DNA of 64,000 bases, taken from assembly GCA_963665115.1 (NCBI GenBank), contig OY762007.1, positions 32,001-96,000 on the forward strand. The letters run 5' to 3'. The DNA is from an uncultured Rivularia sp. Its GTDB lineage: Bacteria; Cyanobacteriota; Cyanobacteriia; Cyanobacteriales; Nostocaceae. The notes under the pieces are model-generated. The model searched no databases. It was not told the DNA's origin and was given only the letters and a program-made list of their open reading frames with translations. Shown piece by piece: positions 31,844 through 60,207 of the stretch (position 1 is its first letter; every line of letters begins with the position of its first letter). The position numbers and the translations under genes are program-made.

Positions 31844-32476
31844 ATGAATCAAGTCCAATCTATTCGCATTCTCGTAGCTGAAGATCACGAAATTGTTCGT
31901 GACGGTATCTGTGCTATTGTCAATCAGCAACCAGATATCACCGTTGTTGCAGAAGCGGAAGATGGCGAACAAGCAGTGCAACTATACCGAGAATCGCAAC
32001 CGGATGTGGTATTAATGGACTTGAGAATGCCAAAAATGGAAGGGATAGAGGCGATCGCCCAAATTAAATCGGAATTCTCTGAGGCAAAGATTGTTATTCT
32101 TACTACCTACGACACAGATGAGGATATCTATCGAGGATTACAAGCAGGAGCAAAAGGTTATTTACTCAAAGATACCTCTTCAGAAGAATTAGCTACTGCT
32201 ATTCGTACCGTTTATCAAGGAAAAAAATACGTTCCTCAGCAGGTGGCAATAAAATTAGCTGAACGTATTACAAATCCCGAACTTACCAGCAGAGAAACAG
32301 AAGTTTTAAAGTTATTAACCAAAGGTAAAAGCAATCAAGAAATTGGCTCTATGCTCAAAATTACCGAGGGAACAGTTAAATTTCACGTCAACAACATTTT
32401 CAACAAATTAGGCGTTAGCGACCGCACTCAAGCTGTGATTACGGCATTTAAGCGAGGTTTGAGTCGATTGGAGTAG
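31844..32476 (+). CDS. NarL/LuxR family response regulator
   Basis: AEDH, LMDLRMP, GYLLK; LTSRETEVL..TVKFHVNNIFNKL. Confidence 0.95.
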   Translation: MNQVQSIRILVAEDHEIVRDGICAIVNQQPDITVVAEAEDGEQAVQLYRESQPDVVLMDLRMPKMEGIEAIAQIKSEFSEAKIVILTTYDTDEDIYRGLQAGAKGYLLKDTSSEELATAIRTVYQGKKYVPQQVAIKLAERITNPELTSRETEVLKLLTKGKSNQEIGSMLKITEGTVKFHVNNIFNKLGVSDRTQAVITAFKRGLSRLE

Positions 32477-47031: not shown

Positions 47032-48244
47032 GTGAAATTGAAATTAAGCCGTTTGATTCCATTTCTTGATGAAACTGTATCTAGTTGGGCATTAGAAGCC
47101 CGTTTGTTACGCTGGTTAACCTTGATTTGGCTGTTTGTAGGTTTAGCCGTATTGTTTTCGGCTTCTTATCCAGTTGCTGACGTTAAACATGGTGATGGGC
47201 TTTTGTTTTTCAAACGTCAACTGATAACTGTATTCTTGGGCTTGATTCTCTTCAATATTATTGTCAATTTACCCTTTCATAAAATAATCGGGGTATCCCA
47301 TTGGCTGCTAATGCTGTTTTTGGGATTGATTATTCTCACCTTAATTCCGGGTTTAGGAACTAGAGGGGTTTACGGTACAAGTCGCTGGTTATCTATTGCA
47401 GGATTCCCGATTCAACCTTCGGAATTTATCAAACCTTTTTTAGTGTTGCAAAGTGCGCGAGTTTTTGGAAATTGGGACAGACTTAGTTGGGGAATTCGCA
47501 TTGCTTGGTTGGTGGTTTTTGGTTTTGTGCTGTTAGGAATTCTGGCGCAACCTAACTTAAGTACCACAGCACTTTGCGGAATGACTGTCTGGTTAATTGC
47601 TATGGCTAGTGGTTTGCCTTACAAATATTTAGGAGGTAGCGCTGGTGCAGGAGTTGTATTAGCGCTGATGAGCGTTACCGTTAATAAATACCAACGTTCC
47701 CGTATCACCTCTTTTTTCAATCCTTGGGACGATCCTCAAGGTACAGATTACCAGTTAATTCAAAGTTTACTAGCAGTAGGTTCGGGTAATACTTGGGGTT
47801 TCCGGATTTGGGCTTTCTCAACAAAAGCTTTCTTGGCTACCAATTGCAGATAGCGACTTTATTTTTGCAGTATTTGCTGAAGAATTTGGCTTTGTTGGCA
47901 GCGTCACGCTATTAGTAATGTTAGCTGTATTCGCAACTTTGGGATTAATTGTAGCTTTCAAAGCAAAAAGTGTTATATACAGGTTATCGGCAATTGGGAT
48001 TACCACCTTACTTACAGGACAATCATTTATAAATATTGGTGTTGCCAGTGGAGTTTTACCAACCACAGGTTTACCTTTACCATTTTTTAGTTACGGCGGA
48101 AGTTCGATAATTGCCACATTGATTGCAACAGGATTATTAATTAGAGTTGCACGGGAAAGTAACGAAGCCGACGTGCTTCCATTACGAAGACAACCAATAA
48201 AACCCAAACGCGAACGACGGTTTTTACATAGGAATAAATTTTAA
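47032..48244 (+). CDS. ftsW: Cell division SEDS protein FtsW (frameshift at 47799-47801)
   Basis: IQPSEFIK, QPNLST, YQLIQSL; bridging frame LPIADSDFIFAVFAEEFG; PTTGLPLPFFSYGGSS. Confidence 0.85.
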
Positions 48245-48527
48245 TTTACTACTATTTATTCGATATAGCATTTCCCAGTCTATCAAGGTATATCTCAAAA
48301 CCTCACCCCCAACCCCTCTCCTAATATGCAAAGAGGCTATGCATTAGGTAATCGCTGTACCTCAGTTGCCAGGGCAAACGCTATAGCAAGCAAACATATA
48401 TTAAATTTGCTTGAATTATTTCTGAAAAGGTTAGTAAGGTGAACTGTAAGTAGACTAGAGATAAAAATCAGTTTACCAACCGTTTTTATATAGCCCGCAT
48501 CAGCGGGCTTTATTTATGAGTAATAGA

Positions 48528-48872
48528 TAATTGGGGATTGGGGATTGGGCATTGGGCATAGGGAATTGGTAATTGATAATTGGGGATGGGGGATGGGGCA
48601 TTGGGCATAGGGAATTGATAATTGATAATTGGTAATTGATAATTGATAATTGGTAAAGTAATTACAGTTATTACCACGTAAGGAAGCAATGCCATAGCCT
48701 GGAAAGTTGTAGCGAGTGTATAAATTCTGATTTTATTCAAAATCCTAAAATCATTACCAGGTAAAAGTTTTGAAATGTATAAGAAGACTAATTAATTTGT
48801 AAAAAACAAACCTCTATTACCAATTACCAATTACCAATTACCAATTACCAATTACCAATTACCAATTACCTA
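48528..48872. repeat. Inverted STRR arrays (TTGGTAA/GGGGATT ... CCAATTA) around a unique core
   Basis: Arms 48528-48655 and 48815-48872. Confidence 0.75.
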
Positions 48873-48880
48873 ATTCTAAT

Positions 48881-49885
48881 ATGTCAATTAATTTGAATCG
48901 TCGTAAATTCCTGGGATACAGTACCGCAGTCTTTAGCGGTATACTATTAAAAGCTTGTAGCAACAACCAAACCTCAACACCCACAGCTACTAGTGGTGAA
49001 GACGCTTTCAAAATTGCGATCGCGCTTCCGGGAGCGATTACCGATAAGACTTGGAATCAGTCTGGTTATGAAGGCGTGCAGTTAGCAAGACAGCAACTCG
49101 GTGCGGAAACTGCTTTTTTAGAACAAATTCCTCAAGCCGAACAAACAGAAGTTTTAACAGATTTTGCTCGTAAGAAATATAATCTTATATTTGCCCACGG
49201 TGGACAATTTGATGCTGCAATTCAACAAATAGCACCCCAATTTCCCGATACATTTTTTATCGCTGTTAACGGTGCAGTTAAAGGAGATAATATTGCTGCT
49301 TTACGGATAAATCACCAGCAAGCTAGCTATTTGTGTGGAATTGTTGCCGCTTCGATGACAAAATCTAATCAAATAGCTTACATTGCCGGACAAAAATTTG
49401 CTGCCACTGAAGAAGAATTACTTGGTTTAGAATTAGGAGCAAAATCGGTAAATCCTAAAATAAAAGTAACTTCTACTTTCACAGGAGATTGGAATGATGC
49501 TTCCAAAGCCAAAGAAGCGACATTAGCTTTAATTTCTACTGGTGCCGATGTTATTTATCAATGGTTGGATAATGCATCACCTGCGGTATTACAAACAGCC
49601 GCAGAAAAAAATGTTTATGCTTTCGGAAATACAAAAGATCAATTAGAAATAGCACCAAAGGCAGTATTAACAAGTGCAGTTAAAAGAATGGATTTAGCAA
49701 TAGCTTATATATCAGAATTAGCTAAAAACAAACAATTAAAAGGCGATATTTATAAAATTGGTTTAGAAAACTCCGATATTCTTAGTTTGGGAAAATTTGG
49801 CGATATGGTGTCAGGAGATATTCAGAAAAAAGCAATGGATGCAAAGCAGGGAATTGTTGAAGATAAAATTAAAATTGGTAGTTAG
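48881..49885 (+). CDS. BMP family ABC transporter substrate-binding lipoprotein (nucleoside/purine-type)
   Basis: NRRKFL..LKAC; DKTWNQSGYEG, FTGDWND, GADVIY. Confidence 0.9.
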   Translation: MSINLNRRKFLGYSTAVFSGILLKACSNNQTSTPTATSGEDAFKIAIALPGAITDKTWNQSGYEGVQLARQQLGAETAFLEQIPQAEQTEVLTDFARKKYNLIFAHGGQFDAAIQQIAPQFPDTFFIAVNGAVKGDNIAALRINHQQASYLCGIVAASMTKSNQIAYIAGQKFAATEEELLGLELGAKSVNPKIKVTSTFTGDWNDASKAKEATLALISTGADVIYQWLDNASPAVLQTAAEKNVYAFGNTKDQLEIAPKAVLTSAVKRMDLAIAYISELAKNKQLKGDIYKIGLENSDILSLGKFGDMVSGDIQKKAMDAKQGIVEDKIKIGS

Positions 49886-50131
49886 GGGTAGAGGGGGGAG
49901 AGGGGACATTATTAAAGTAGTGAGTAGTGAGTAATGAGTAACAAGTAGTGAGTAATGAGTAGTGAGTAATGAGTAACAAGTCGCGAGTAAAAATAGACGG
50001 GCAGAAGTACCGACATTTATGACAATAATAAAAAAGTGATGTACTTGCTACTCTCTACTCCCTACTTAATACTCCTAACTATCCCCAATCCCCAATCCCC
50101 AATCCCCAATCCCCAATTACCAATTACCAAT
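49885..50131 (-). repeat. Composite STRR element copy 3 (inverted)
   Basis: Reverse complement contains ATCACTTTTTTATTATTGTCATAAATGTCGGTACTTCTGCCCGTCTATTTTTACTCGC. Confidence 0.8.
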
Positions 50132-50141
50132 TCAAATTTGA

Positions 50142-51641
50142 ATGCCATTTTTACGCTTAGAAAATATTACAAAATCCTTTGGTTCCTTTGTTGCTAACGA
50201 TAATATCGGCTTTGAAATAGGGGCTGGTAAAATTCACGCGATTTTGGGAGAAAATGGTGCTGGTAAAACTACTTTGATGAATATTATTAGCGGTCTTTAT
50301 CAACCAGATAAGGGCAAAATTTATTTAAAAGACAAACCTGTAAATATTACATCTGCGAATGCAGCAATTAAACTCGGTATTGGCATGATTCATCAACATT
50401 TTATGCTAGTACCGCAGTTAAGTGTCACAGAAAATATTATTCTCGGAATTGATAGAAATTGGTCGTTAAATCTTAAACAAAAACAACAAAAAATAGCTGA
50501 TTTATCTAACTCTTACGGATTAGAAATTAACCCCGAAACAAAAGTTGGAGATTTACCAGTAGGAACTCAACAACGAGTCGAAATTCTCAAAGTTCTTTAC
50601 CGTCAAGCTAAATTATTGATTCTTGATGAACCAACGGCTGTTTTAACTCCATTGGAAGTAAAATCTTTAATTAAAATTCTCCGCAAACTCGCTGCTGCTG
50701 GTAATACAATTATTTTTATCAGTCATAAGCTAGAAGAAGTAATCAACCTTTGCGATACCGTGACAGTATTACGACGGGGAAAAGTAGTTGCGAATAAGAA
50801 CATTGCAGAAACTACTGCTTCCGAATTAGCAGCTTTAATGGTGGGAAGAGAAGTTACTTTTCAATTAAATAAATCTCCGGTAAATCCAGGAAAGGTGATT
50901 TTATCGGTAAATAATTTACAAGTAACAGACGATAGAGGTGTAACTGCTGTAAATAATATATCCTTTGAACTGCGAGAAAGAGAAATTTTAGGTATTGCTG
51001 GAGTAGATGGAAATGGACAGCGAGAATTAGCCGATGCTTTAGCACAAATCCGAAATATCAAAGCTGGGGAAATTACGTTTATTCAAAATTCAACTACAGG
51101 TTATATTCCCGAAGATAGGCAAAAAATGGGTTTGATATTGCAGTTTAATATTGCTCAAAACTTGATTTTAAAAGCTTTTAAAAAATTACCCTTTTGTCGT
51201 CACTTCTTATTTAAACCCCAAGTAATTAATCACAATGCAACTTCTGCAATCGAAGAATTTGATATTCGAGGAGCGGGAGTTAACGTAAAAGCAAATCAGC
51301 TTTCAGGAGGAAATCAACAAAAGATTGTTTTAGCAAGGGAATTAGCAGGAAATCCGGTATTAATCGTAGCTATGCAGCCCACTCGCGGATTAGATGTAGG
51401 AGCTACCGAAACAGTACAGCAACGATTGTTAAAGGAAAGGGAACGAGGAGCCGCGATTGTATATATTTCTACCGAGTTAGAAGAAGTGATGGCAATTAGC
51501 GATCGCCTTGCGGTGATGTATCGAGGTGAATTTGTTGGTGTATTGGATGCCCAGACAGCGACGGTTGAGGAAGTTGGTTTGTTGATGGGAGGAGGGGGGA
51601 GAGATGGGGTGATGGAGGGACAAGGGGACAACCCCCCATAA
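50142..51641 (+). CDS. ABC transporter ATP-binding protein (CUT2/nucleoside type)
   Basis: GENGAGKTT, ILDEPT, LSGGNQQK, QPTRGLD. Confidence 0.95.
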   Translation: MPFLRLENITKSFGSFVANDNIGFEIGAGKIHAILGENGAGKTTLMNIISGLYQPDKGKIYLKDKPVNITSANAAIKLGIGMIHQHFMLVPQLSVTENIILGIDRNWSLNLKQKQQKIADLSNSYGLEINPETKVGDLPVGTQQRVEILKVLYRQAKLLILDEPTAVLTPLEVKSLIKILRKLAAAGNTIIFISHKLEEVINLCDTVTVLRRGKVVANKNIAETTASELAALMVGREVTFQLNKSPVNPGKVILSVNNLQVTDDRGVTAVNNISFELREREILGIAGVDGNGQRELADALAQIRNIKAGEITFIQNSTTGYIPEDRQKMGLILQFNIAQNLILKAFKKLPFCRHFLFKPQVINHNATSAIEEFDIRGAGVNVKANQLSGGNQQKIVLARELAGNPVLIVAMQPTRGLDVGATETVQQRLLKERERGAAIVYISTELEEVMAISDRLAVMYRGEFVGVLDAQTATVEEVGLLMGGGGRDGVMEGQGDNPP

Positions 51642-51765: not shown

Positions 51766-54319
51766 TTACTTGAATCCTCTACCATGAGCGGGAGAGGTGT
51801 TACTTATTACTTTTGGCTCTCTAATTATTACTTGTGAAGTATTGGCTCCGCTGCACTCAGATATTTGTTTTGTTGCCAAAGGTGTATTTTCAAGAGCAAC
51901 CAGTTCAATTTCTCCTTTTGAATTTCGAGCAAAACCAGTAGCTTCTACAATTGCTGATTTCTTCGGTATTTGCATAATTTCAACAGTATTATTATTTCTT
52001 TTACGATATGCAGATAAATCGCGAATATCCGACCAAGTTTGTTTTTCATTTATATTTACATTGGGGTTTCTGCGGTACTCCACCCCTTCCGGTTGCCACA
52101 AAAGTACTGCCGGAATTACTAGAACATCCAGAAGAAATTTCTTGAGATGAATCAGAAAGAGCTACGGGTAATTCCACTAAACCAGAACTAGGATCAATAC
52201 TAATATTATTAATTTGGACCGTACCGTTGACACCAAATTTGGAACTTGCGGTAATGTCACTTTCTGGAGTGAGTTCTTCGCGAAATTCTAAACCGAAAAT
52301 ACCTTGAGTCGTAATGTTTATATTACCACCCATACCTTCAACTGCATTGGCGACAATATCGCTGTTTTCAAAACCGGCAATTACAGGAGAATTGATGGTT
52401 ATATTACCACCATCACCTACAACACCTTTAGCTTCTGTATTAATAGCACCTCCACGACGTAGGCTTAAAAAATCTGCTGCATTAATATCAATATTTCCAC
52501 CTTCTCCAGATTGTGTTGAAGCAGACAAACGTCCATTTCGATCTAAGGAAATCAAATCCGCATTCACATATAATGTACCTGCATTACCTACACTTTGGTG
52601 ACTAACCGTAAGCTCTGCTCCATCGGTAATTGACAATTTGGGTGTATTAATAATAATACTACCTGCATTTCCTGTAACTTCATCAGGTACTCCAAACCTT
52701 CGACGGAGGGGTGGTGGTAATAATGTACCTCTAGTATTGATAGTGCTAGGTTCAGTACGACCACTTCTAACACGACTACCGCTTAACAAAATACTATTCG
52801 ATGCATTAACCATAATTTCGCTACTATTTCCAGCACCAAAAGTTGATGAAGCAATAAATGCTCCTCCCAAGAGAGATAAACGAGGAGTATTAATCTCAAT
52901 ATTGCCTGCATTTCCCATAGAAGAAACTACACTAGATGTGATAGTTGCATCATTATTATTGGATGGGAAAACGCTCAATTCAATTAATTCACTAGCATTA
53001 ATCAAAATATTACCAGTATTTCCATTTGCTCCGAAATTAATAGTTGTAATTGCACCACCACCATTCACAGAAAGGACTTCAGTATTAATAGTCAGGTCGC
53101 CACTATTTCCATTTCCGATAGAAGTTCTAGTCCCAAGAGTACCAATAATACTATCGGATTTACTATCTATAAATTTGATAGTGGAAGCATCAACATTAAC
53201 CTTTCCTGAATCTCCAAAAGAAAAAGTACGAGCTTGTAAGCTTCCTCCTTCCATAAATTTCATTTCGGTAGTATTAACATTAATATCACCACCTTTACCC
53301 GTACTGCTAACATCAGCATAAATCCCACTTCTAAGTGTTGTGTTGGGAGCAGTTCCCATCAAGTCAATAGAATTTGTAATGTTAAGGTTGATAGAACCAG
53401 CTTGTTGATTACCCCGATTTTCCAGCCATACTATAGAACCATTATCCAAAGTCAAATTTTCTCCCTGGATTTGTATTGTTCCCTGTCCCGTACCGCTAAC
53501 ATCTACTAAAGACTTTTGTAAAAGTTGAATATTTCCTGTTGGTTGAACTGTATCGTATGTTAAGGAAGGGCGATTATTAATCGTTTGCAACCCGATTTGA
53601 GATGGAGAGTCTTGATTCCCAACAGCACTTAATTCGACTTTACCGCTAGCAGTTGTTATTACACCTCCATCAAACTTTAAATTACCTCCTACTAATGCAA
53701 AAGTCTGGTTTGAAGGGACTTGCAAACCCACAATACTAGTGTCTTGATTAGTAATTTGTGTCCCCGCACCAAGAGTAAGCTGATGTCCGGTGTTGTTAAC
53801 TGTTATGTCTGCTGAACTTCGTCCCATCTGCAAACCAACAGGAACACTCACAGTTAACAAAGGCTCACTTTGAGGATTTATTGCGCTAAATTCAAACCCA
53901 TCCTCAAACAAAATACTTTCTGCGGTAGTTCCCAAAAATGAACCACCAATATCTAACCGTGCATTTTCACCAAACACAATTCCGGCAGGATTAATTAAAA
54001 ATAAATTCGCATTTCCGTTGGCTTTTATTAAGCCATCAAGATTAGAAATATTTCCACCTGTTACTCGGTTAATAATATTAACTACATCAGTAGAATTATT
54101 GAAAGTTGCGGAACCACCTGTAGGAATAGAAAACTCTTTAAAACTATGAAATAAATTATTACCTTTTTGAATACCGTTAATAATATTATATTTACTGTCA
54201 TCTAATTTTACTTTTGTATCAGTAGTTCCATCAGATGTTATCTGAGCAATTGCTGGTAAAACAATTCCCGAAGTTAGTAAACTACTTATCAATCCAAATA
54301 GAAGCTTAATCCCTTTCAT
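51766..54319 (-). CDS. Filamentous haemagglutinin-like secreted protein (TpsA type; frameshift at 52067-52069)
   Basis: Signal peptide, NLFHSFKEFS, LINPAGIVFG, G/N-rich beta-helix; FVATGRGGVPQ(NP)..WSDIR..IVEATGF C-terminus. Confidence 0.88.
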
Positions 54320-54524: not shown

Positions 54525-54592
54525 ACTCCTTTATGATTTACCAGTCTGGGAGTTTTGATCGCGTTAAAAGCCGGACAATTTAACATTGGTGG
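54525..54592 (+). repeat. 68-bp copy of internal permease sequence 57970-58037
   Basis: 66/68 identical; one change makes a TGA in the permease frame. Confidence 0.9.
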
Positions 54593-54736
54593 CTAATATT
54601 ACGAAGTCCGGCGACCTCTTCTAGGGTGAGGGTGATTTAGCGCAGTCTCTGAATTACTATATTATGGAAAAGGTAAATAATTATTGTTGTCTATTAAGCT
54701 AGCAGATAACAAGCTGGAATATTGGGAGACTATTCG

Positions 54737-55822
54737 ATGACGGGGACTATTAACGAAAAACAACTGTCGAGAATAGTTTTAAAAGGTTTCAAGTCTATTG
54801 TCGAATGCGATATTGAACTCAATAAGATAAATGTTTTAATTGGTGCTAATGGAGCGGGAAAATCCAATTTTATCGGCTTTTTTCGCATGATGCAGCAGTT
54901 ACTTGAAGAAAATCTACAAGTTTTTGTCAGCCGTCAAGGTAGTCCCGATACACTACTACACTTTGGACGGAAAACAACGGAACAGCTAGAGTTTCGGCTA
55001 TATTTTGGTAATAAAGGCTATTTCGCAGCGTTAGCAGCAACTCAAGATAATCGCTTGATGTTTGTTGAGGAGTTTTTTTGGTGGAATTTAGCGGCAGAAT
55101 ATGAACTAGGAAAAGGTCATTTTGAGACAAAGGCTTTTTCTCTTACTGGGACAAGAATTCATGAGAATATTTTGTCTGCTATGCAGGGATGGAGGGTTTA
55201 TCATTTTCATGACACCAGCGATAGTGCTTATGTAAAACAGCGTCACGGTATTAATGATAATAATTATCTGCGTCCTGATGCGCGAAATCTTGCAGCTTTT
55301 CTTTATTTATTGCGCGAGAATTACTCTTCATCCTATCAGAAAATAGTCAAAACTATTAGACTTGTTGCACCGTTTTTTCGAGACTTTTACCTGCGTCCAT
55401 CACCACAAAATAACGAATTTATAGAACTCGAATGGTTTGAGCGGGGACATGATATTCCCTTCAAAGCACATTTACTTTCCGACGGTACGCTACGTTTTAT
55501 ATGTCTGACAACAGTTTTTTTACAACCAGAAGATTTTCAACCGGAGACAATATTAGTTGATGAGCCAGAACTTGGTCTTCATCCCTATGCTATTACGGTT
55601 TTGGCTTCGTTGATACGGACTTCTAAACAGGTAATTGTTTCTACTCAGTCAGTGGAATTGCTCAACGAATTTGATGCTTCAGATGTAATAGTTGTTGACC
55701 GTAATAGCGGTTGTTCTTCACTTCGCAGGTTGGAAGAGCGAGAGTTAGAGGAATGGCTAGAAGATCATAGCTTAGGAGAGCTTTGGAAGAAAAACCTTAT
55801 CGGAGGTAGACCTTCAAAATGA
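54737..55822 (+). CDS. ABC-type ATPase (AAA_15/AAA_21, OLD/AriA-like)
   Basis: GFKSI, GANGAGKSN, LSDGTLRF, ILVDEPELGLHP, VSTQS; ATG at 54737 (ORF open from 54722). Confidence 0.88.
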   Translation: MTGTINEKQLSRIVLKGFKSIVECDIELNKINVLIGANGAGKSNFIGFFRMMQQLLEENLQVFVSRQGSPDTLLHFGRKTTEQLEFRLYFGNKGYFAALAATQDNRLMFVEEFFWWNLAAEYELGKGHFETKAFSLTGTRIHENILSAMQGWRVYHFHDTSDSAYVKQRHGINDNNYLRPDARNLAAFLYLLRENYSSSYQKIVKTIRLVAPFFRDFYLRPSPQNNEFIELEWFERGHDIPFKAHLLSDGTLRFICLTTVFLQPEDFQPETILVDEPELGLHPYAITVLASLIRTSKQVIVSTQSVELLNEFDASDVIVVDRNSGCSSLRRLEERELEEWLEDHSLGELWKKNLIGGRPSK

Positions 55823-56469
55823 TTCGAGTTCACGTTTTTGTTGAAGGACAAACCGAAGAAACTTTTGTTAGAGAACTGCTCTATGAGTATTTTATAGATA
55901 AGAATATATACCTCAATCCAATCTTAGTAAGCACCAGTAAAACTGCTAAAGGTGGTGTAGTCAGTTATGCAAAAATCAAGCCGCAAATTAATCGCAAGTG
56001 TCTGGAAGATGCAAAAGCATTTGTCACCACAATGTTTGATATGTACGCTTTACCTAAAGACTTTCCCGGAAGCAGTTTGCTACCAAAAATCAATGAACCT
56101 TTGCAGAAAGCAGAATATTTAGAAAGGGAAATGGGTAAAGATATTGGACACAAAAATTTTATCCCTAATTTACTAGTTCATGAATTTGAAGGTTTGTTAT
56201 ACAGCAATCCACAAGCTTTTGCTGGGTGGTTTGATGAAAGTGCCGTAGTTACCTTGCAAGAAGAACGTAATGCTTTTTCTTCACCCGAACATATTAACGA
56301 TAGTCCCCTAACAGCACCATCAAAAAGAATTCGTAATTGCTGTAAGGGATACGATAAACCGCTGCATGGTTCCTTACTTGCTATAGATATTGGGCTAGAT
56401 ACAATCCGTTTTGAATGTCAGCATTTTAATCAATGGTTGCTGCGGATTGAAAATATAGTTGTAGCTTAA
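55819..56469 (+). CDS. DUF4276 family (Toprim-like) protein
   Basis: VFVEGQTEE, TMFDMY, VHEFEGLL, PEHIND..APSKRI, CQHFNQWL; ATGA overlap with the ATPase. Confidence 0.8.
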   Translation: MIRVHVFVEGQTEETFVRELLYEYFIDKNIYLNPILVSTSKTAKGGVVSYAKIKPQINRKCLEDAKAFVTTMFDMYALPKDFPGSSLLPKINEPLQKAEYLEREMGKDIGHKNFIPNLLVHEFEGLLYSNPQAFAGWFDESAVVTLQEERNAFSSPEHINDSPLTAPSKRIRNCCKGYDKPLHGSLLAIDIGLDTIRFECQHFNQWLLRIENIVVA

Positions 56470-56742
56470 ACAAGAGAATTTTTTACTTGCTTAATAATCG
56501 CTTCAATTAATATCTAACATCATTCATCATTCTCACAATCACCGGGGAATGAAATTAAGAGGCTAATAGCTGGCATTCCTATAAATAGCACTAGGCAAGA
56601 ATTTTAGTCTTCTTTAGAAGACTTTGTATGTAAGCCTGGGAATTTATTCCAAGGCGGTTGTTGAGAATGGTGCAAGATGTGAAATGAATCGGACTGTTTT
56701 TTGTAGGGTTTGATTTTTTGATTTAAAAACGATAGCTCAATG

Positions 56743-57359
56743 ATTTTAATCCCCTTTCGGGGCAAAGGTATCGGAAAGTTTTTGGCGTATTAACTGGTGG
56801 AGCTGGCTTTGCAATAAGGTTTCCATCCCCTTTCGGGGCAAAGGTATTGGAAAGCTGTAAATATGTATATTAAGGAAGAAGGGTGCTTGAGAGTTTCCAT
56901 CCCCTTTCGGGGCAAAGGTATCGGAAAGTGTTAGTGCGGTTGAAAAATTTAGTATCCAATGGTTTCCATCCCCTTTCGGGGCAAAGGTATTGGAAAGCTG
57001 TAAATATGTATATTAAGGAAGAAGGGTGCTTGAGAGTTTCCATCCCCTTTCGGGGCAAAGGTATCGGAAAGGGTGGTAGTGTTGGAAATGTTGAAGGCTC
57101 CTCAGCCAAGTTTCCATCCCCTTTCGGGGCAAAGGTATCGGAAAGAAAAGGGATGGGCTAGTAATAGCCTGGTTGGTTAAGTTTCCATCCCCTTTCGGGG
57201 CAAAGGTATCGGAAAGTCCAACAATGTCATAGACAAAGTTGGATGTGAGTTAGGGTTTCCATCCCCTTTCGGGGCAAAGGTATCGGAAAGTGAGCATGAA
57301 AACTATAATTCACATTTCTAAAAGTTTCCATCCCCTTTCGGGGCAAAGGTATCGGAAAG
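56743..57359 (-). CRISPR. CRISPR array, 9 repeats (36 bp) / 8 spacers (33-40 bp), no cas genes in window
   Basis: GTTTCCATCCCCTTTCGGGGCAAAGGTATCGGAAAG at 56743 (degenerate), 56819, 56893, 56962, 57036, 57110, 57181, 57255, 57324. The degenerate copy at left implies minus-strand transcription (CTTTCCGATACCTTTGCCCCGAAAGGGGATGGAAAC). Confidence 0.97.
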
Positions 57360-57560
57360 AGTTCACTTCTGGAACCCTTACACAGAGGGCATTTGAGATA
57401 CCCCAATCGACACACTCCGAAAAAATGGAGAAATTTTTCGAGAAAACGGTCATTTTTGTCGCTTGAAACCCTTACTGGGTAAGCAATCGACACACTCCAA
57501 CGAAGTTATAGGGTTTTCAAGGTTCTGAGCTAGTGTGTCGATTTAGTTCGACTTCTAACT
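57360..57560 (-). promoter_or_regulatory. CRISPR leader
   Basis: Adjacent to the non-degenerate end; CAATCGACACACTCC at 57404 and 57484, inverted AGTGTGTCGATT at 57532. Confidence 0.7.
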
Positions 57561-57798
57561 AACTCAAGTAAGATACATTAGCTACTGATATTTATCAAGC
57601 TATAAATCAAAAAAGTTTACATGGTCAGAATTTTATTGTTAATACATAAGTTAAAATCATGCTAATTAAGGCGATCGCCAGCAATCTACTTATGAATCAA
57701 AAACCTACCAATAATTAAGATAAATTTAAACTCGGATTGAGCAATTGCCGTCGTAAAAGCATCCGTTGTAAAAACTAATCTACCCGTTATTAAAACCA

Positions 57799-58837
57799 AT
57801 GCATCCGTTGCTAAAATTTTTCTCACCAATAATTGCCATATTATCGGCTTTAATAGTCGGTGCAATTCTAATTTTAATAGCTGGTGCAAATCCCATCGCA
57901 GCATATACAGCACTTTTTCAAGAATCGCTTTTCGATTATTTTGGTTTTGGCAATACTTTAACTAGAATGACTCCTTTATTATTTACCAGTTTGGGAGTTT
58001 TGATCGCGTTAAAAGCCGGACAATTTAACATTGGTGGGGAAGGACAAATTTATTTGGGTGCTTTGGGAAGTACTTTAGTTGGTTTGTATTTTCAAAGTTT
58101 ACCAGCATTTATTCATGTACCTTTGGCATTGCTGGTAGGATTTTTATTTGGTGGAATTTGGGGTTGGATTCCCGGTTATTTAAAAGCAATCAAGGGTGTA
58201 AATGAGATAATTACAACTTTGTTGCTCAACTATATTGCGGTGAATTTAATTAGTTACTTGGTGCAAAATCCCCTCAAAGCAGAAAACGCACCCAGCCCTT
58301 ATTCACCATTGATTGCCAAATCTGCTCAATTACCAATGTTGCCGGGAAATTTGGCTCATAGCGGTATTTTCTTAGGCTTATTAGTCGCAGTAATTTTATG
58401 GATATTATTGCAGCGTACACCTTTGGGTTATCAAATAACAGCAGTGGGATTTAACTCGATAGCTTCTAACTACGCGGGAATTTCCGTAAAACGAACCATT
58501 ATTTTAGTAATGGCTGCTTCGGGTGGATTAGCTGGATTAGCAGGTAGTTGTGAAGTCATGGGCTTGAAATATCGGTTATTTGAAGAAATTTCCCCCGGTT
58601 ATGGATTCGACGCGATCGCAATTGCCTTTCTCAGTCGTGGTAACGTTTTGGGAGTAGTTTTAGCTTCCTTATTTTTTGCAGCATTGCGGAGTGGAGCCAA
58701 TGTCATGCAGCGTAGCGCCGGTGTTTCCGGTAACGGTAGTTTTGGCGATTCAGGGGTTGACAGTGTTGTTTATTGCCATTGGTTTAGCATTGGAAAACAG
58801 AGATGGGGAGAGGGGGGAGAGGGGGGAGAGGGGGTAG
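57799..58837 (+). CDS. ABC transporter permease 1 (frameshift at 58724-58726)
   Basis: FNIGGEGQ, VNEIITTLLLNY, GYGFDAIAIA; removing one T gives AGVPVTVVLAIQG and a stop at 58835-58837. Confidence 0.9.
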
Positions 58838-59274
58838 AGGGGGTAGAGGGGGGAGATGGGGAGACAAGGAATTATCCAAATATTCGTAGTGGGAGCATCT
58901 TGCTCCCTTGCAGTTTTCTAAACTAAAAAAACCAATCCCCAATCCCCAATTACCAATTACCAATCCCCAATTACCAATTACCAATTACCAATTACCAATT
59001 ACCAATTACCAATTACCAATTCCCAATTACCAATTACCAATCCCCAATTACCAATTACCAATCCCCAATTACCAATTACCAATTACCAATTACCAATTAC
59101 CAATTACCAATCCCCAATTACCAATTACCAATTACCAATTACCAATTACCAATTACCAATTACCAATTACCAATTACCAATTACCCATTACCAATCCCCA
59201 ATCCCCTCTACCCCCTCTACCCCCTCTACCCCCTCTCCCCCCTCTCCCCCAACTCCCCCCTCTCCCCCTCCCTC
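58803..59274. repeat. STRR block: 9-mer GGGGAGAGG arm, (CCAATTA/CCAATCC)n, complementary CCCCTCTMC arm
   Basis: Direct reading of the tandem units. Confidence 0.9.
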
Positions 59275-60207
59275 ATGAATAACAATTTAGCTTTCTTCAC
59301 AGATTACCTCGCATCAAGCATCCGTTTAGCTGTTCCTCTTGCCTTCGCGGCTTTGGGTGGGATGTATTCGGAGCGTGCAGGTATATTAAATATTGCTTTG
59401 GAGGGGATGTTATTAACTGGGGCTTTTACTAGTGCTGCGGCAACTTTTTACTCTGGTAATCCTTGGTTGGGCGTAATATCTGCTGTTGTTGCTGGAGGTT
59501 TGGTGGGGTTGCTTCATGCTTTTTTGTGTGTGAGTTTGCGGGTTAATCAGTTGGTGTCTGGATTGGCGATTAATTTGGTAGCGTCTGGGTTAACGTCATT
59601 TTTGGCGAGGTTGGTGTTTAATAGTGGTAGCAATCAAAGATTAGCGGGAATTGAAGCAATTATCATTCCTGGATTTGCTAATATACCTTTGATTGGGAAG
59701 CTCCTATTTCAACAAGATCTCTTCGTATATTTACTGATTATTTTAATTGCTTTTAGTATATATTTTCTGTTTCATACCAGCCCTGGATTAACTTTGCGTG
59801 CTGTGGGAGAATATCCCCAGGCTGCCGATACTGCGGGAATTTCTGTATTCAAGGTGCGTTATTTGGCTGTTATCGCAAGTGGTTGTTTGGCTAGTTTGGG
59901 AGGAGCTTACTTGAGTTTAGTACAGGTAAAATATTTTGCTGAAGGCATGAGTTCGGGAAAAGGGTTTATTGCGATCGCAGCTTTAATTTTTGGTAAATGG
60001 CATCCTCTAGGTACTAGTTTGGCGAGTTTATTATTTGGTGCTACAGAAGCTTTACAGTTAAGAATTCAAGCTTTAGGCGTAAATATACCCTATCAATTTT
60101 TAATTATGCTGCCTTATGCAGTGGCATTAATAGCTTTAGTTGGTTTTGTGAAAAAATCCCCACCTCCCGCAGCTTTAGGTATTCCTTATAATCAAGAACG
60201 AAAATAA
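59275..60207 (+). CDS. ABC transporter permease 2
   Basis: SERAGILNIALEG, LRAVGEYPQAADTAGI, GKGFIAIAALIFGKWHP. Confidence 0.93.
   Translation: MNNNLAFFTDYLASSIRLAVPLAFAALGGMYSERAGILNIALEGMLLTGAFTSAAATFYSGNPWLGVISAVVAGGLVGLLHAFLCVSLRVNQLVSGLAINLVASGLTSFLARLVFNSGSNQRLAGIEAIIIPGFANIPLIGKLLFQQDLFVYLLIILIAFSIYFLFHTSPGLTLRAVGEYPQAADTAGISVFKVRYLAVIASGCLASLGGAYLSLVQVKYFAEGMSSGKGFIAIAALIFGKWHPLGTSLASLLFGATEALQLRIQALGVNIPYQFLIMLPYAVALIALVGFVKKSPPPAALGIPYNQERK

Follow-up and report, generated by a model that had tools for sequence, protein, structure and literature searches.

Two adjacent genes lodged in a transporter operon of an uncultured Rivularia genome belong to HEC-01, a candidate anti-phage system, and likely act as a PARIS-like sensor and effector. 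The CRISPR array beside them falls, by repeat and leader sequence, in the type III-D family; it is an orphan, likely processed by a remote Cas6. The reading that we hold to be quite probable is that pair and array are independent passengers of one variable site. Since relatives carry the pair or the array singly, the two are likely plain neighbours rather than halves of some new system, and the locus offers no evidence for a novel system linked to CRISPR. The window analyzed here spans 64,000 nt (OY762007.1, positions 32,001–96,000), and its genome is labelled G000.

As the preliminary description had it, an insert, which measures ~6.1 kb, divides a BMP-type transporter operon. On the plus strand, the left flank consists of a BMP/PnrA-like substrate-binding protein (48881–49885; Pfam Bmp) and the transporter ABC ATPase (50142–51641; Pfam ABC_tran), which marks the left edge of the variable gap; on the right lie permease 1 (57799–58926) and permease 2 (59275–60207), also on the plus strand and both matching Pfam BPD_transp_2. 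The 3′ end of permease 1 is frame-shifted by one extra base at ~58724, likely an assembly error. Besides the pair and the array already described, the insert holds a minus-strand gene that the description left out, coding for a 757-aa protein with a TPS/filamentous-haemagglutinin domain (52046–54319; Pfam TPS E 6.7e-62). This gene is absent from the same position in G001, G003, G004, G009, G010, G011 and G017, and is a strain-specific addition to the gap. A small dispersed inverted repeat with ~60 copies in the genome (56600–56690, no strand assigned) lies between the pair and the array and contains a terminator-like hairpin at 56606–56623. Promoter and terminator scans gave counts at chance level (8 vs 9.2; 5 vs 3.4).

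HEC-01A (54737–55822, plus strand, starting at ATG 54737) codes for an ABC-type ATPase of 361 aa (Pfam AAA_21 E 5.9e-25; PADLOC HEC-01A E 5.6e-149), and HEC-01B (55819–56469, plus strand) for a DUF4276 protein of 216 aa, a predicted nuclease of TOPRIM fold (Pfam DUF4276 E 7.2e-57; PADLOC HEC-01B E 4.3e-84). The HEC-01B start overlaps the HEC-01A stop codon in a 4-nt ATGA, and the Pfam profile search bore out the coupled AAA_21 ATPase/DUF4276 pair first noted from the open reading frames. Both PADLOC models match near full length in adjacent genes and, as best PADLOC matches, beat AriA, OLD and GajA by more than 100 orders of magnitude. Walker A, the LSDGT signature and the Walker B/D-loop of HEC-01A are invariant among 53 homologues (G38, G40, K41 and S42; S247–G249; D274–P282, numbered from the residue after Met), and the switch position is Gln, not His. 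In HEC-01B, a possible acidic metal-binding site is suggested by E9, E13, D74, E122, E124 and K169, which are invariant in 48 sequences, but the second Asp of the canonical TOPRIM DxD is missing (Asp74-x-Tyr76). Both genes are under purifying selection, with dN/dS against G000 of 0.08–0.13 for HEC-01A (6 comparisons) and 0.08–0.26 for HEC-01B (7 comparisons), whether the array is present or absent. A second HEC-01 pair in the same genome (L008) has no array nearby.

HEC-01 stands for PADLOC Hma-embedded candidate 01, and the discovery paper chose candidates also found outside hma loci (10.1101/2024.01.29.577857). The Rivularia pair has the same two-gene ABC ATPase and TOPRIM layout, with HEC-01 giving the best PADLOC models for both proteins, but is free-standing in a transporter operon and not within hma genes. 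Membership of PARIS, of OLD class 1 or Gabija, and of MADS was rejected. PARIS likewise has separate ABC ATPase and TOPRIM genes, and the pair's predicted 2:1 unit has a similar docking site; the Rivularia ATPase, however, has 361 aa against 53–55 kDa for AriA, and the effector is DUF4276 rather than DUF4435 (PMC11464382). AriB models were unmatched: for HEC-01B, Pfam gave only DUF4276, and PADLOC up to E 0.01 gave only HEC-01B models. OLD class 1 and Gabija resemble the pair in the fold of B, and OLD also in A, whereas the Rivularia ATPase and TOPRIM occupy two reading frames, as they do in the relatives' loci, with no GajB helicase neighbour. The Mad3/Mad4 genes of MADS also join an AAA ATPase to a DUF4276 homologue, as Mad4 has been named (PMC12065111); here, MAD3 scored 105 against a cut-off of 420 bits, and the pair lies among TPS, array and transporter genes, with no methylase or mad gene beside it. 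By membership, then, the pair is neither of the PARIS nor of the OLD kind named in the preliminary description, but it probably works as they do.

A sequence search of the PDB with the HEC-01B profile gave no match. The predicted structure of HEC-01B (pLDDT 92) has its best fold match in the TOPRIM region of the B. pseudomallei OLD (Z 9.4, rmsd 3.9, 173 aligned; Foldseek E 3e-4), the comparison with AriB gave Z 7.5, rmsd 4.2 and 172 aligned, and GajA is also among the top matches; the model shows an OLD/AriB-like TOPRIM fold. The best solved relative of HEC-01A is an OLD. A modelled A2B complex scored 0.80, compared to 0.00 for the best control, a level reached by 116 of 157 solved pairs and by 2 of 215 mismatched pairs. 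At least 94% of its contacts are the same between runs, and the partner pLDDT is at least 86. The predicted interface joins residues 11–23 of B, right after Glu9, to residues 283–295 of A, right after the Walker B Glu, and would parallel the contact described between AriB alpha2 and AriA D401–E404 (PMC11464382). The predictor's memory of the solved AriA–AriB complex may account for the pass. According to the model, an ATPase dimer would bind one TOPRIM subunit via the helix that follows the catalytic Glu.

By analogy with PARIS, a phage product would trip the HEC-01A ATPase, and the TOPRIM nuclease, then released or activated, would cut host nucleic acid (tRNA or DNA), so that the infected cell would stop growing. 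We lean slightly towards this scheme of trigger, nuclease release or activation and growth arrest. Less probable, in our judgement unlikely, is that HEC-01 here is not anti-phage at all and is instead a selfish toxin–antitoxin pair or a DNA-processing ATPase/nuclease, for example one acting against plasmids. The discovery paper reports no protection with a coliphage panel (10.1101/2024.01.29.577857), the Pfam description of AAA_21 mentions a type IV TA toxin, and the pair has long resided in a housekeeping operon. Yet protection by an HEC-01 is reported in one study, G007, G018 and G019 have lost the pair cleanly, which speaks against strong addiction, and its closest structural relatives, namely OLD, PARIS, Gabija and retron Eco8, are defence proteins. 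Phage tests in the literature are mixed and concern other members. The significance of the Rivularia pair, intact, under purifying selection and with a confident predicted A2B model, would be modest; it lends itself to testing a system that is widespread but of disputed activity.

The array (56743–57359) consists of 9 repeats of 36 nt and 8 spacers of 33–40 nt, and its leader lies at 57360–57545. With its leader at the right-hand end, the array runs on the minus strand and converges with the pair, from which 273 bp separate it; both points agree with what had been noted (a convergent 9-repeat array with leader, about 270 bp away). The trailer repeat, first by coordinate, is degenerate and the other repeats are nearly invariant. 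Seven of the 8 spacers are distinct, spacers 5 and 7 from the leader being identical. The leader is 86% identical to that of a second orphan array in the genome and 82–85% identical to leaders among cas6/cas10/csx genes in the type III-D cas loci of G578 and G010; in G009, G021 and G005 it adjoins cas6. GGGGATGGAAAC and a CCCC-N4/5-GGGG stem recur in the repeats of the two arrays at the genome's own III-D locus, from which this repeat differs in the 5′ half. A bias in spacer strand was rejected as a type III signature because the pyrimidine excess is also found in 2 of 3 I-D arrays. An RNA run from another strain (X17, share 0.08) gave no cover on the array and is uninformative on expression.

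The statement that the window holds no cas gene was confirmed: 11 Cas/RT queries from the same genome found no match in it by tblastn, and every match in the Cas1 and RAMP family searches fell outside it. The array is thus cas-less locally but not genome-wide, as the genome holds I-D, III-D and III-B loci; its cas1 genes number three, its type III operons two, and two of its Cas6 proteins are full-length. The cas1 gene nearest to the array is ~82 kb away. When the cognate operon was sought elsewhere in the genome, cas6 and effector genes that may be cognate were found at the III-D locus G000:C1:1447–1459 kb (cas6, cas10, csx10, csx7 x3 and csx21), whose Cas6 lies 1.36 Mb from the array; cas1 was not found in III-D locus L004. 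The III-D Cas10 matched in 1 of 5 genomes and was not found in G001, G009 or G021, all of which have this repeat; G001, which is 81% complete, gave neither a RAMP match nor a close Cas6 homologue. Cas proteins from other loci of the genome likely serve the array. In Anabaena PCC 7120, a remote III-D Cas6 processes orphan group-1 (type III-D) arrays, which are likewise cas-free and occur in a multicellular cyanobacterium with I-D and III-D cassettes (10.1101/2020.04.14.041012). The Rivularia array is tied to III-D by loci of its own genome and of relatives, and likened to the Anabaena arrays by description; we infer its processing. By this analogy, Cas6 would cut the repeat, leaving an 8-nt ATGGAAAC tag, and crRNAs from the array would load into the III-D complex in trans.

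An array neither processed nor extended any more, a dead relic, is an improbable alternative. It would fit the lack of cas genes within ~80 kb and of cas1 at L004, the divergent 5′ half of the repeat, the internal spacer duplication and the lack of spacer targets among GenBank phages or PLSDB plasmids: blastn against 50,697 GenBank phage records gave 3 matches at E 8, and 5 PLSDB records at 68–72% identity are consistent with repeat-like matches. Among the 4 leader-proximal G000 spacers, no self-target was convincing (best 21/22 nt, E 0.003). Against a relic stand the near-invariance of the repeats, the kept hairpin and ATGGAAAC end, the conserved leader (96% identical in G009; 96–99% across G009 and G001) and the complete turnover of spacers between close strains, G000 and G001 sharing none though their flanking genes are 96–98% identical.

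Occupancy of the gap in relatives bears on whether pair and array belong together. Both are present in 4 genomes (G000, G001, G009 and G011), HEC-01 alone in 5 (G003, G004, G010, G017 and L070), and neither in G007, G018 and G019; an array alone lies at transporter remnants in G021 (2 loci) and G005, genomes in which HEC-01B was unmatched. A contig of run X6 bridges the ABC gene, the pair and the permease with no array. This tally, whose genomes are kin and hence not independent events, omits G002 (contig ends inside B), G016 (permease, no upstream ABC gene), G023 (HEC-01 at another site) and G648, and also G036 and G037, which belong to other families and have an intact operon.

The preliminary description had further proposed that the pair is functionally linked to the crRNAs or guards the array as a toxin–antitoxin module, and had named chance adjacency as the alternative. 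A tie of HEC-01 to the array, whether crRNA-guided, crRNA-repressed as in CreTA or as an addiction module preserving the array, now seems very improbable. HEC-01 and array lie 220–273 bp apart in 3 genomes, with 2.7 kb between them in the fourth, their convergent layout could give antisense read-through, and they were possibly transferred together into or from G009. Nevertheless, outside the genus, no HEC-01B locus has an array of at least 3 repeats (0/50 genome and 0/80 metagenome loci; at least 1 kb was available downstream of B in 46 and 47, respectively, and positive controls were detected). Of the outcomes that the preliminary description named as refuting a link, the lack of arrays beside homologous pairs was thus largely borne out, in 130 loci outside this one site. 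Strong leader copies number 21 in the genus, only 4 of them near HEC-01 and all at this site. When 18 spacers from G000, G001 and G009 were compared with the HEC-01 promoter (−300 to +60) and genes, none beat 100 shuffles, the lowest shuffle count being 5/100 among 72 comparisons. Another such outcome, the array standing at the locus in relatives that lack the pair (G021 twice, G005), was also largely borne out; like the spacer result, it tells against a tie. CreTA-like regulation, which would share a possible toxin gene beside CRISPR repeats, was rejected: CreTA involves one or two ectopic repeats that belong to no array (PMC9458426), whereas the Rivularia locus has a full 9-repeat, leader-bearing array outside a cas locus, with strain-specific spacers whose complementarity to the promoter does not exceed that of shuffles. 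A literature search covering few subscription papers found none on HEC-01 or DUF4276 beside CRISPR arrays. Chance adjacency of an ordinary orphan array is the better reading. For one Rivularia lineage it is similarly far-fetched that HEC-01 and the III-D array form a co-transferred, co-regulated cassette, in which HEC-01 is tuned by array read-through or by a type III complex loaded with crRNA, the pair serving as a back-up that fires once anti-CRISPRs block CRISPR.

Clades with good support in the transporter trees (G000/G001/G003; G010/G017) recur in the HEC-01 tree, as expected for long residence at the site. HEC-01 would have arrived in the ABC/permease gap a single time, before this clade diversified, with several later losses, and the array would have come as a piece of a III-D locus; G021 and G005 still have a cas6-HD-array block at the same permease/EamA site. 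In G009, the repeat is identical to that of G000 and the leader nearly so, yet the transporter genes are only 87–88% identical (AU p 0.045 for the permease and 0.13 for the ABC gene), which hints, on sequence grounds, that HEC-01 and array moved together once, into or from G009.

The limits 54525 and 58037 given in the preliminary description coincide with a 68-nt direct repeat on which its text was silent. The left copy (54525–54592, plus strand, followed by a fragment of the small dispersed repeat) is 97% identical to permease-1 sequence at 57970–58037. We consider it highly unlikely that 54525–58037 is an integrative element with att-like repeats, carrying both HEC-01 and the array along with a substitute 5′ end for the permease. 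The direct repeat is real and brackets exactly these parts, and G007, with flanks 98% identical, has neither pair nor array. The segment, however, has no integrase or transposase, no permease 5′ half remains to the left of the left copy, and that copy, missing in all relatives with HEC-01 at the site, turned up in no genome but the window's; moreover, the HEC-01 tree repeats the transporter-tree clades, and no circle joint was listed for any of 8 runs, although their contigs end at the repeat. The right junction of the left copy is unchanged in contigs of runs X1–X3. Depth over the HEC-01 segment is ~2x that of its neighbours in X1, raised in X3 and not in X2; amplification or excision was dropped as a reading because contig depth is no copy number.

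Across the genus, the gap has taken up HEC-01 and AbiJ-like genes, arrays, TPS genes, TnpB and an intron-type RT gene. The earlier view that defence genes are inserted in the transporter operon holds in that the pair is HEC-01 and cargo of other defence types sits in the gap in relatives, where G003, G017 and G019 have an AbiJ_NTD4-DUF7014 gene. The ABC/permease gap of this transporter is a genus-level insertion hotspot, and such gaps can be mined for defence candidates.

The BMP transporter operon is split by an insert, as the preliminary description had proposed, and the resulting gap extends from the end of the transporter ATPase gene (51641) to permease 1 (from 57799). It holds the overlapping ATPase/DUF4276 pair, HEC-01A (54737–55822, plus strand) and HEC-01B (55819–56469, plus strand), followed after a measured 273 bp (about 270 bp in that description) by the convergent nine-repeat CRISPR array (56743–57359, minus strand; leader 57360–57545). 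HEC-01A most likely starts at ATG 54737, which GGGAGA precedes by eight bases. Two further features of the gap had gone unmentioned earlier: a minus-strand TPS-domain gene (52046–54319) and a 68-nt duplicate of permease sequence (54525–54592). Heptamer tandem repeats, presumably of a type widespread in heterocyst-forming cyanobacteria, occupy intergenic regions of the operon (48520–48870, 50076–50132 and 58930–59270). The genome (G000) is a single contig of 8.69 Mb, with the window at 32001–96000. Its nearest homologues with a named source come from Rivularia, which suggests that genus. Single extra bases at window positions 47799, 52067 and 58724 cause frameshifts in ftsW, at the end of the TPS gene and in permease 1, respectively. 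These are likely assembly errors, because the bases at 47799 and 58724 are absent from relatives, and those at 52067 and 58724 from sequencing run X3, although run X2 retains the latter two. Cas3, Cas10d and Cas10b genes elsewhere in G000 are split as well.

PADLOC assigned both proteins to HEC-01 (E 5.6e-149 for A, 4.3e-84 for B), far ahead of its matches to AriA (1e-25), OLD (8e-17) and GajA (2e-13); the NCBIfam MAD3 score was 105, below its cut-off of 420. The family is already known, since HEC-01 is described in one report as an ABC ATPase and TOPRIM pair with the metal site of OLD (10.1101/2024.01.29.577857), and DUF4276 appears as a TOPRIM family in another (PMC12065111). The former states that HEC-01 gave no protection in E. 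coli (10.1101/2024.01.29.577857), and a further study lists one HEC-01 that protected against one or more of T4, T5 and T7 (10.1101/2024.09.26.614923). Walker A, the LSDG signature and DEPELGLHP of HEC-01A are unchanged throughout 53 homologues, as are Glu9, Glu13, Asp74, Glu122, Glu124 and Lys169 of HEC-01B throughout 48, with Tyr at the second position of DxD. Across 13 of 13 comparisons, dN/dS of the two genes was 0.08–0.26. The predicted HEC-01B structure (pLDDT 92) best matched the OLD TOPRIM (6nk8; Z 9.4, rmsd 3.9, 173 aligned), ahead of PH0156 (Z 8.8) and AriB and GajA (Z 7.5 each), a modest margin since unrelated folds begin at Z 7.4; Foldseek also returned OLD (E 3e-4). A model of two HEC-01A and one HEC-01B scored 0.80 (best control 0.00). 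Among solved complexes this mark is attained by 116 of 157, and among mismatched pairs by 2 of 215, counts that apply only roughly here. Contact agreement between runs was at least 94% and partner pLDDT at least 86, although memory of AriA–AriB may be the source of this pass. In the predicted docking site, the B helix that follows Glu9 meets the A helix that follows the Walker B Glu, an arrangement similar to the AriB/AriA contact of PARIS (PMC11464382). By analogy, we lean slightly towards a PARIS-like ATPase-gated nuclease that would arrest growth upon infection.

The preliminary description had also raised a link between the pair and the crRNAs. HEC-01B matches occur in 12 of 27 genus genomes. 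Pair and array share the gap in G000, G001, G009 and G011, the last with 2.7 kb and an RT gene between them and a different repeat variant. The pair lacks an array there in G003, G004, G010, G017 and locus L070 (HEC-01B shortened), and a contig from run X6 likewise spans the ABC gene, the pair and the permease without an array. Neither is present at the gap in G007, G018 and G019, and the array stands without the pair at broken transporter remnants in G021 (two loci) and G005, both genomes without a HEC-01B match. As these genomes are kin, we interpret this distribution as the outcome of one or two past events rather than as a statistic. Outside the genus, the proposed count of pairs beside arrays came to nil: none of 50 distinct genome loci of HEC-01B, and none of its 80 best metagenome loci out of 527 found, held an array of at least three repeats. 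Of these loci, 46 and 47, respectively, reached at least 1 kb beyond the gene. Cas queries matched only one RT at these loci, while HEC-01A accompanied HEC-01B in 48 of the 50 and 77 of the 80. Spacers of G000, G001 and G009 matched their own HEC-01 promoter and genes no better than shuffles. The 130 array-free loci, the pair-alone and array-alone relatives and the spacer result speak against the proposed link, and a functional tie is very improbable. Likely, an already described candidate defence pair and an orphan array of the ordinary kind came together at a variable site.

The HEC-01 tree recovers the same supported clades as the flanking gene trees and is thus compatible with one old insertion followed by several losses. 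G009 clusters with G000 (support 98/96), a grouping weakly rejected by permease data (AU p 0.045) and not rejected by ABC data (0.13). Because of this grouping, and because their leaders are 96% identical whereas the flanks are just 87–88% identical, it is possible that alleles of the pair and the array were exchanged together, involving G009; if so, physical linkage would explain it. Among the genomes read, only G000 has the TPS gene and left 68-nt copy here. The 68-nt direct repeat (54525–54592 and 57970–58037), which consists of permease-1 coding sequence, is treated as a duplication scar, since no recombinase gene is present at the locus. Its left copy is joined to a fragment of a small dispersed repeat, which G007 has just upstream of the permease.

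The exact array repeat occurs once in G000, and an 86% copy of its leader heads another orphan array, which has 21 repeats. With up to two mismatches allowed, the repeat turned up in 4 of 301 family genomes, always at this transporter or its remnants. G000 has three cas1 genes, a I-D operon, an RT-Cas1/III-B locus and a III-D operon including cas6 (1447–1459 kb), whose locus repeats share the terminal GGGGATGGAAAC and CCCC/GGGG stem with the array. The genus holds 21 leader copies at E 1e-31 or better, some of them lying among cas6, cas10 and csx genes (in G578 and G010) or adjoining cas6 (in G009, G021 and G005), so the array is likely a detached III-D member. A candidate for the anticipated cognate operon is present in G000, but III-D Cas10 was detected in one of five relatives examined, and the repeat carriers G001, G009 and G021 yielded none, which counts against a firm assignment. 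The Cas6 homologue and further RAMP loci are retained in G009 and G021. Seven such orphan arrays occur in Anabaena PCC 7120, some of them cut solely by a remote III-D Cas6 (10.1101/2020.04.14.041012). Among six arrays at the site no spacer is shared, not even between G000 and G001. Within the array, one repeat variant plus spacer is duplicated two units apart (56819–56892 and 56962–57035).

A possible hybrid repeat occurs in G019 (L185, G019:C2:21371-21555), where an array headed by this leader family combines a TCCC-TAATA-GGGA stem, like that of G000 I-D repeats, with a ATGGAAAC end. The G000 III-B locus (L005 and L006, G000:C1:1684-1712 kb) encodes a long Cmr6-like protein, CARF-RelE and Csx3-AAA. 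It also has ThiF-like and RelA/SpoT-like genes, RT and cas1 as separate genes, and an array of 90 repeats; the query used matched no Cas6 there. Free-standing blocks of cas6, HD-domain gene and array (L035:5636-9294 in G021, L186:7678-10631 in G005) lie apart from effector operons and are inserted where permease remnants adjoin an EamA gene.

A second, distant HEC-01 pair in G000 (L008:6102-7876; G000:C1:1838101-1839875) matches other PADLOC subfamily models and lies 1 kb from a TnpB gene; no array was found near it. The transporter gap carries other cargo in relatives. An AbiJ_NTD4 plus DUF7014 gene, a defence candidate with a weak PDC-S32 match, lies there in G017 (L027:5178-6101), G003 and G019, after HEC-01 or without it, joined in G017 and G019 by a DUF6174 gene. 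In G021 (L036:5721-9579), the transporter is reduced to remnants comprising a BMP/ABC fragment, a 12-repeat array, a TnpB-type gene and an in-frame permease-1/permease-2 fusion. At L070 (8398–10749), a different TPS gene (48% identical) follows the truncated HEC-01B in the same gap, which would be a second, independent TPS arrival at the site.
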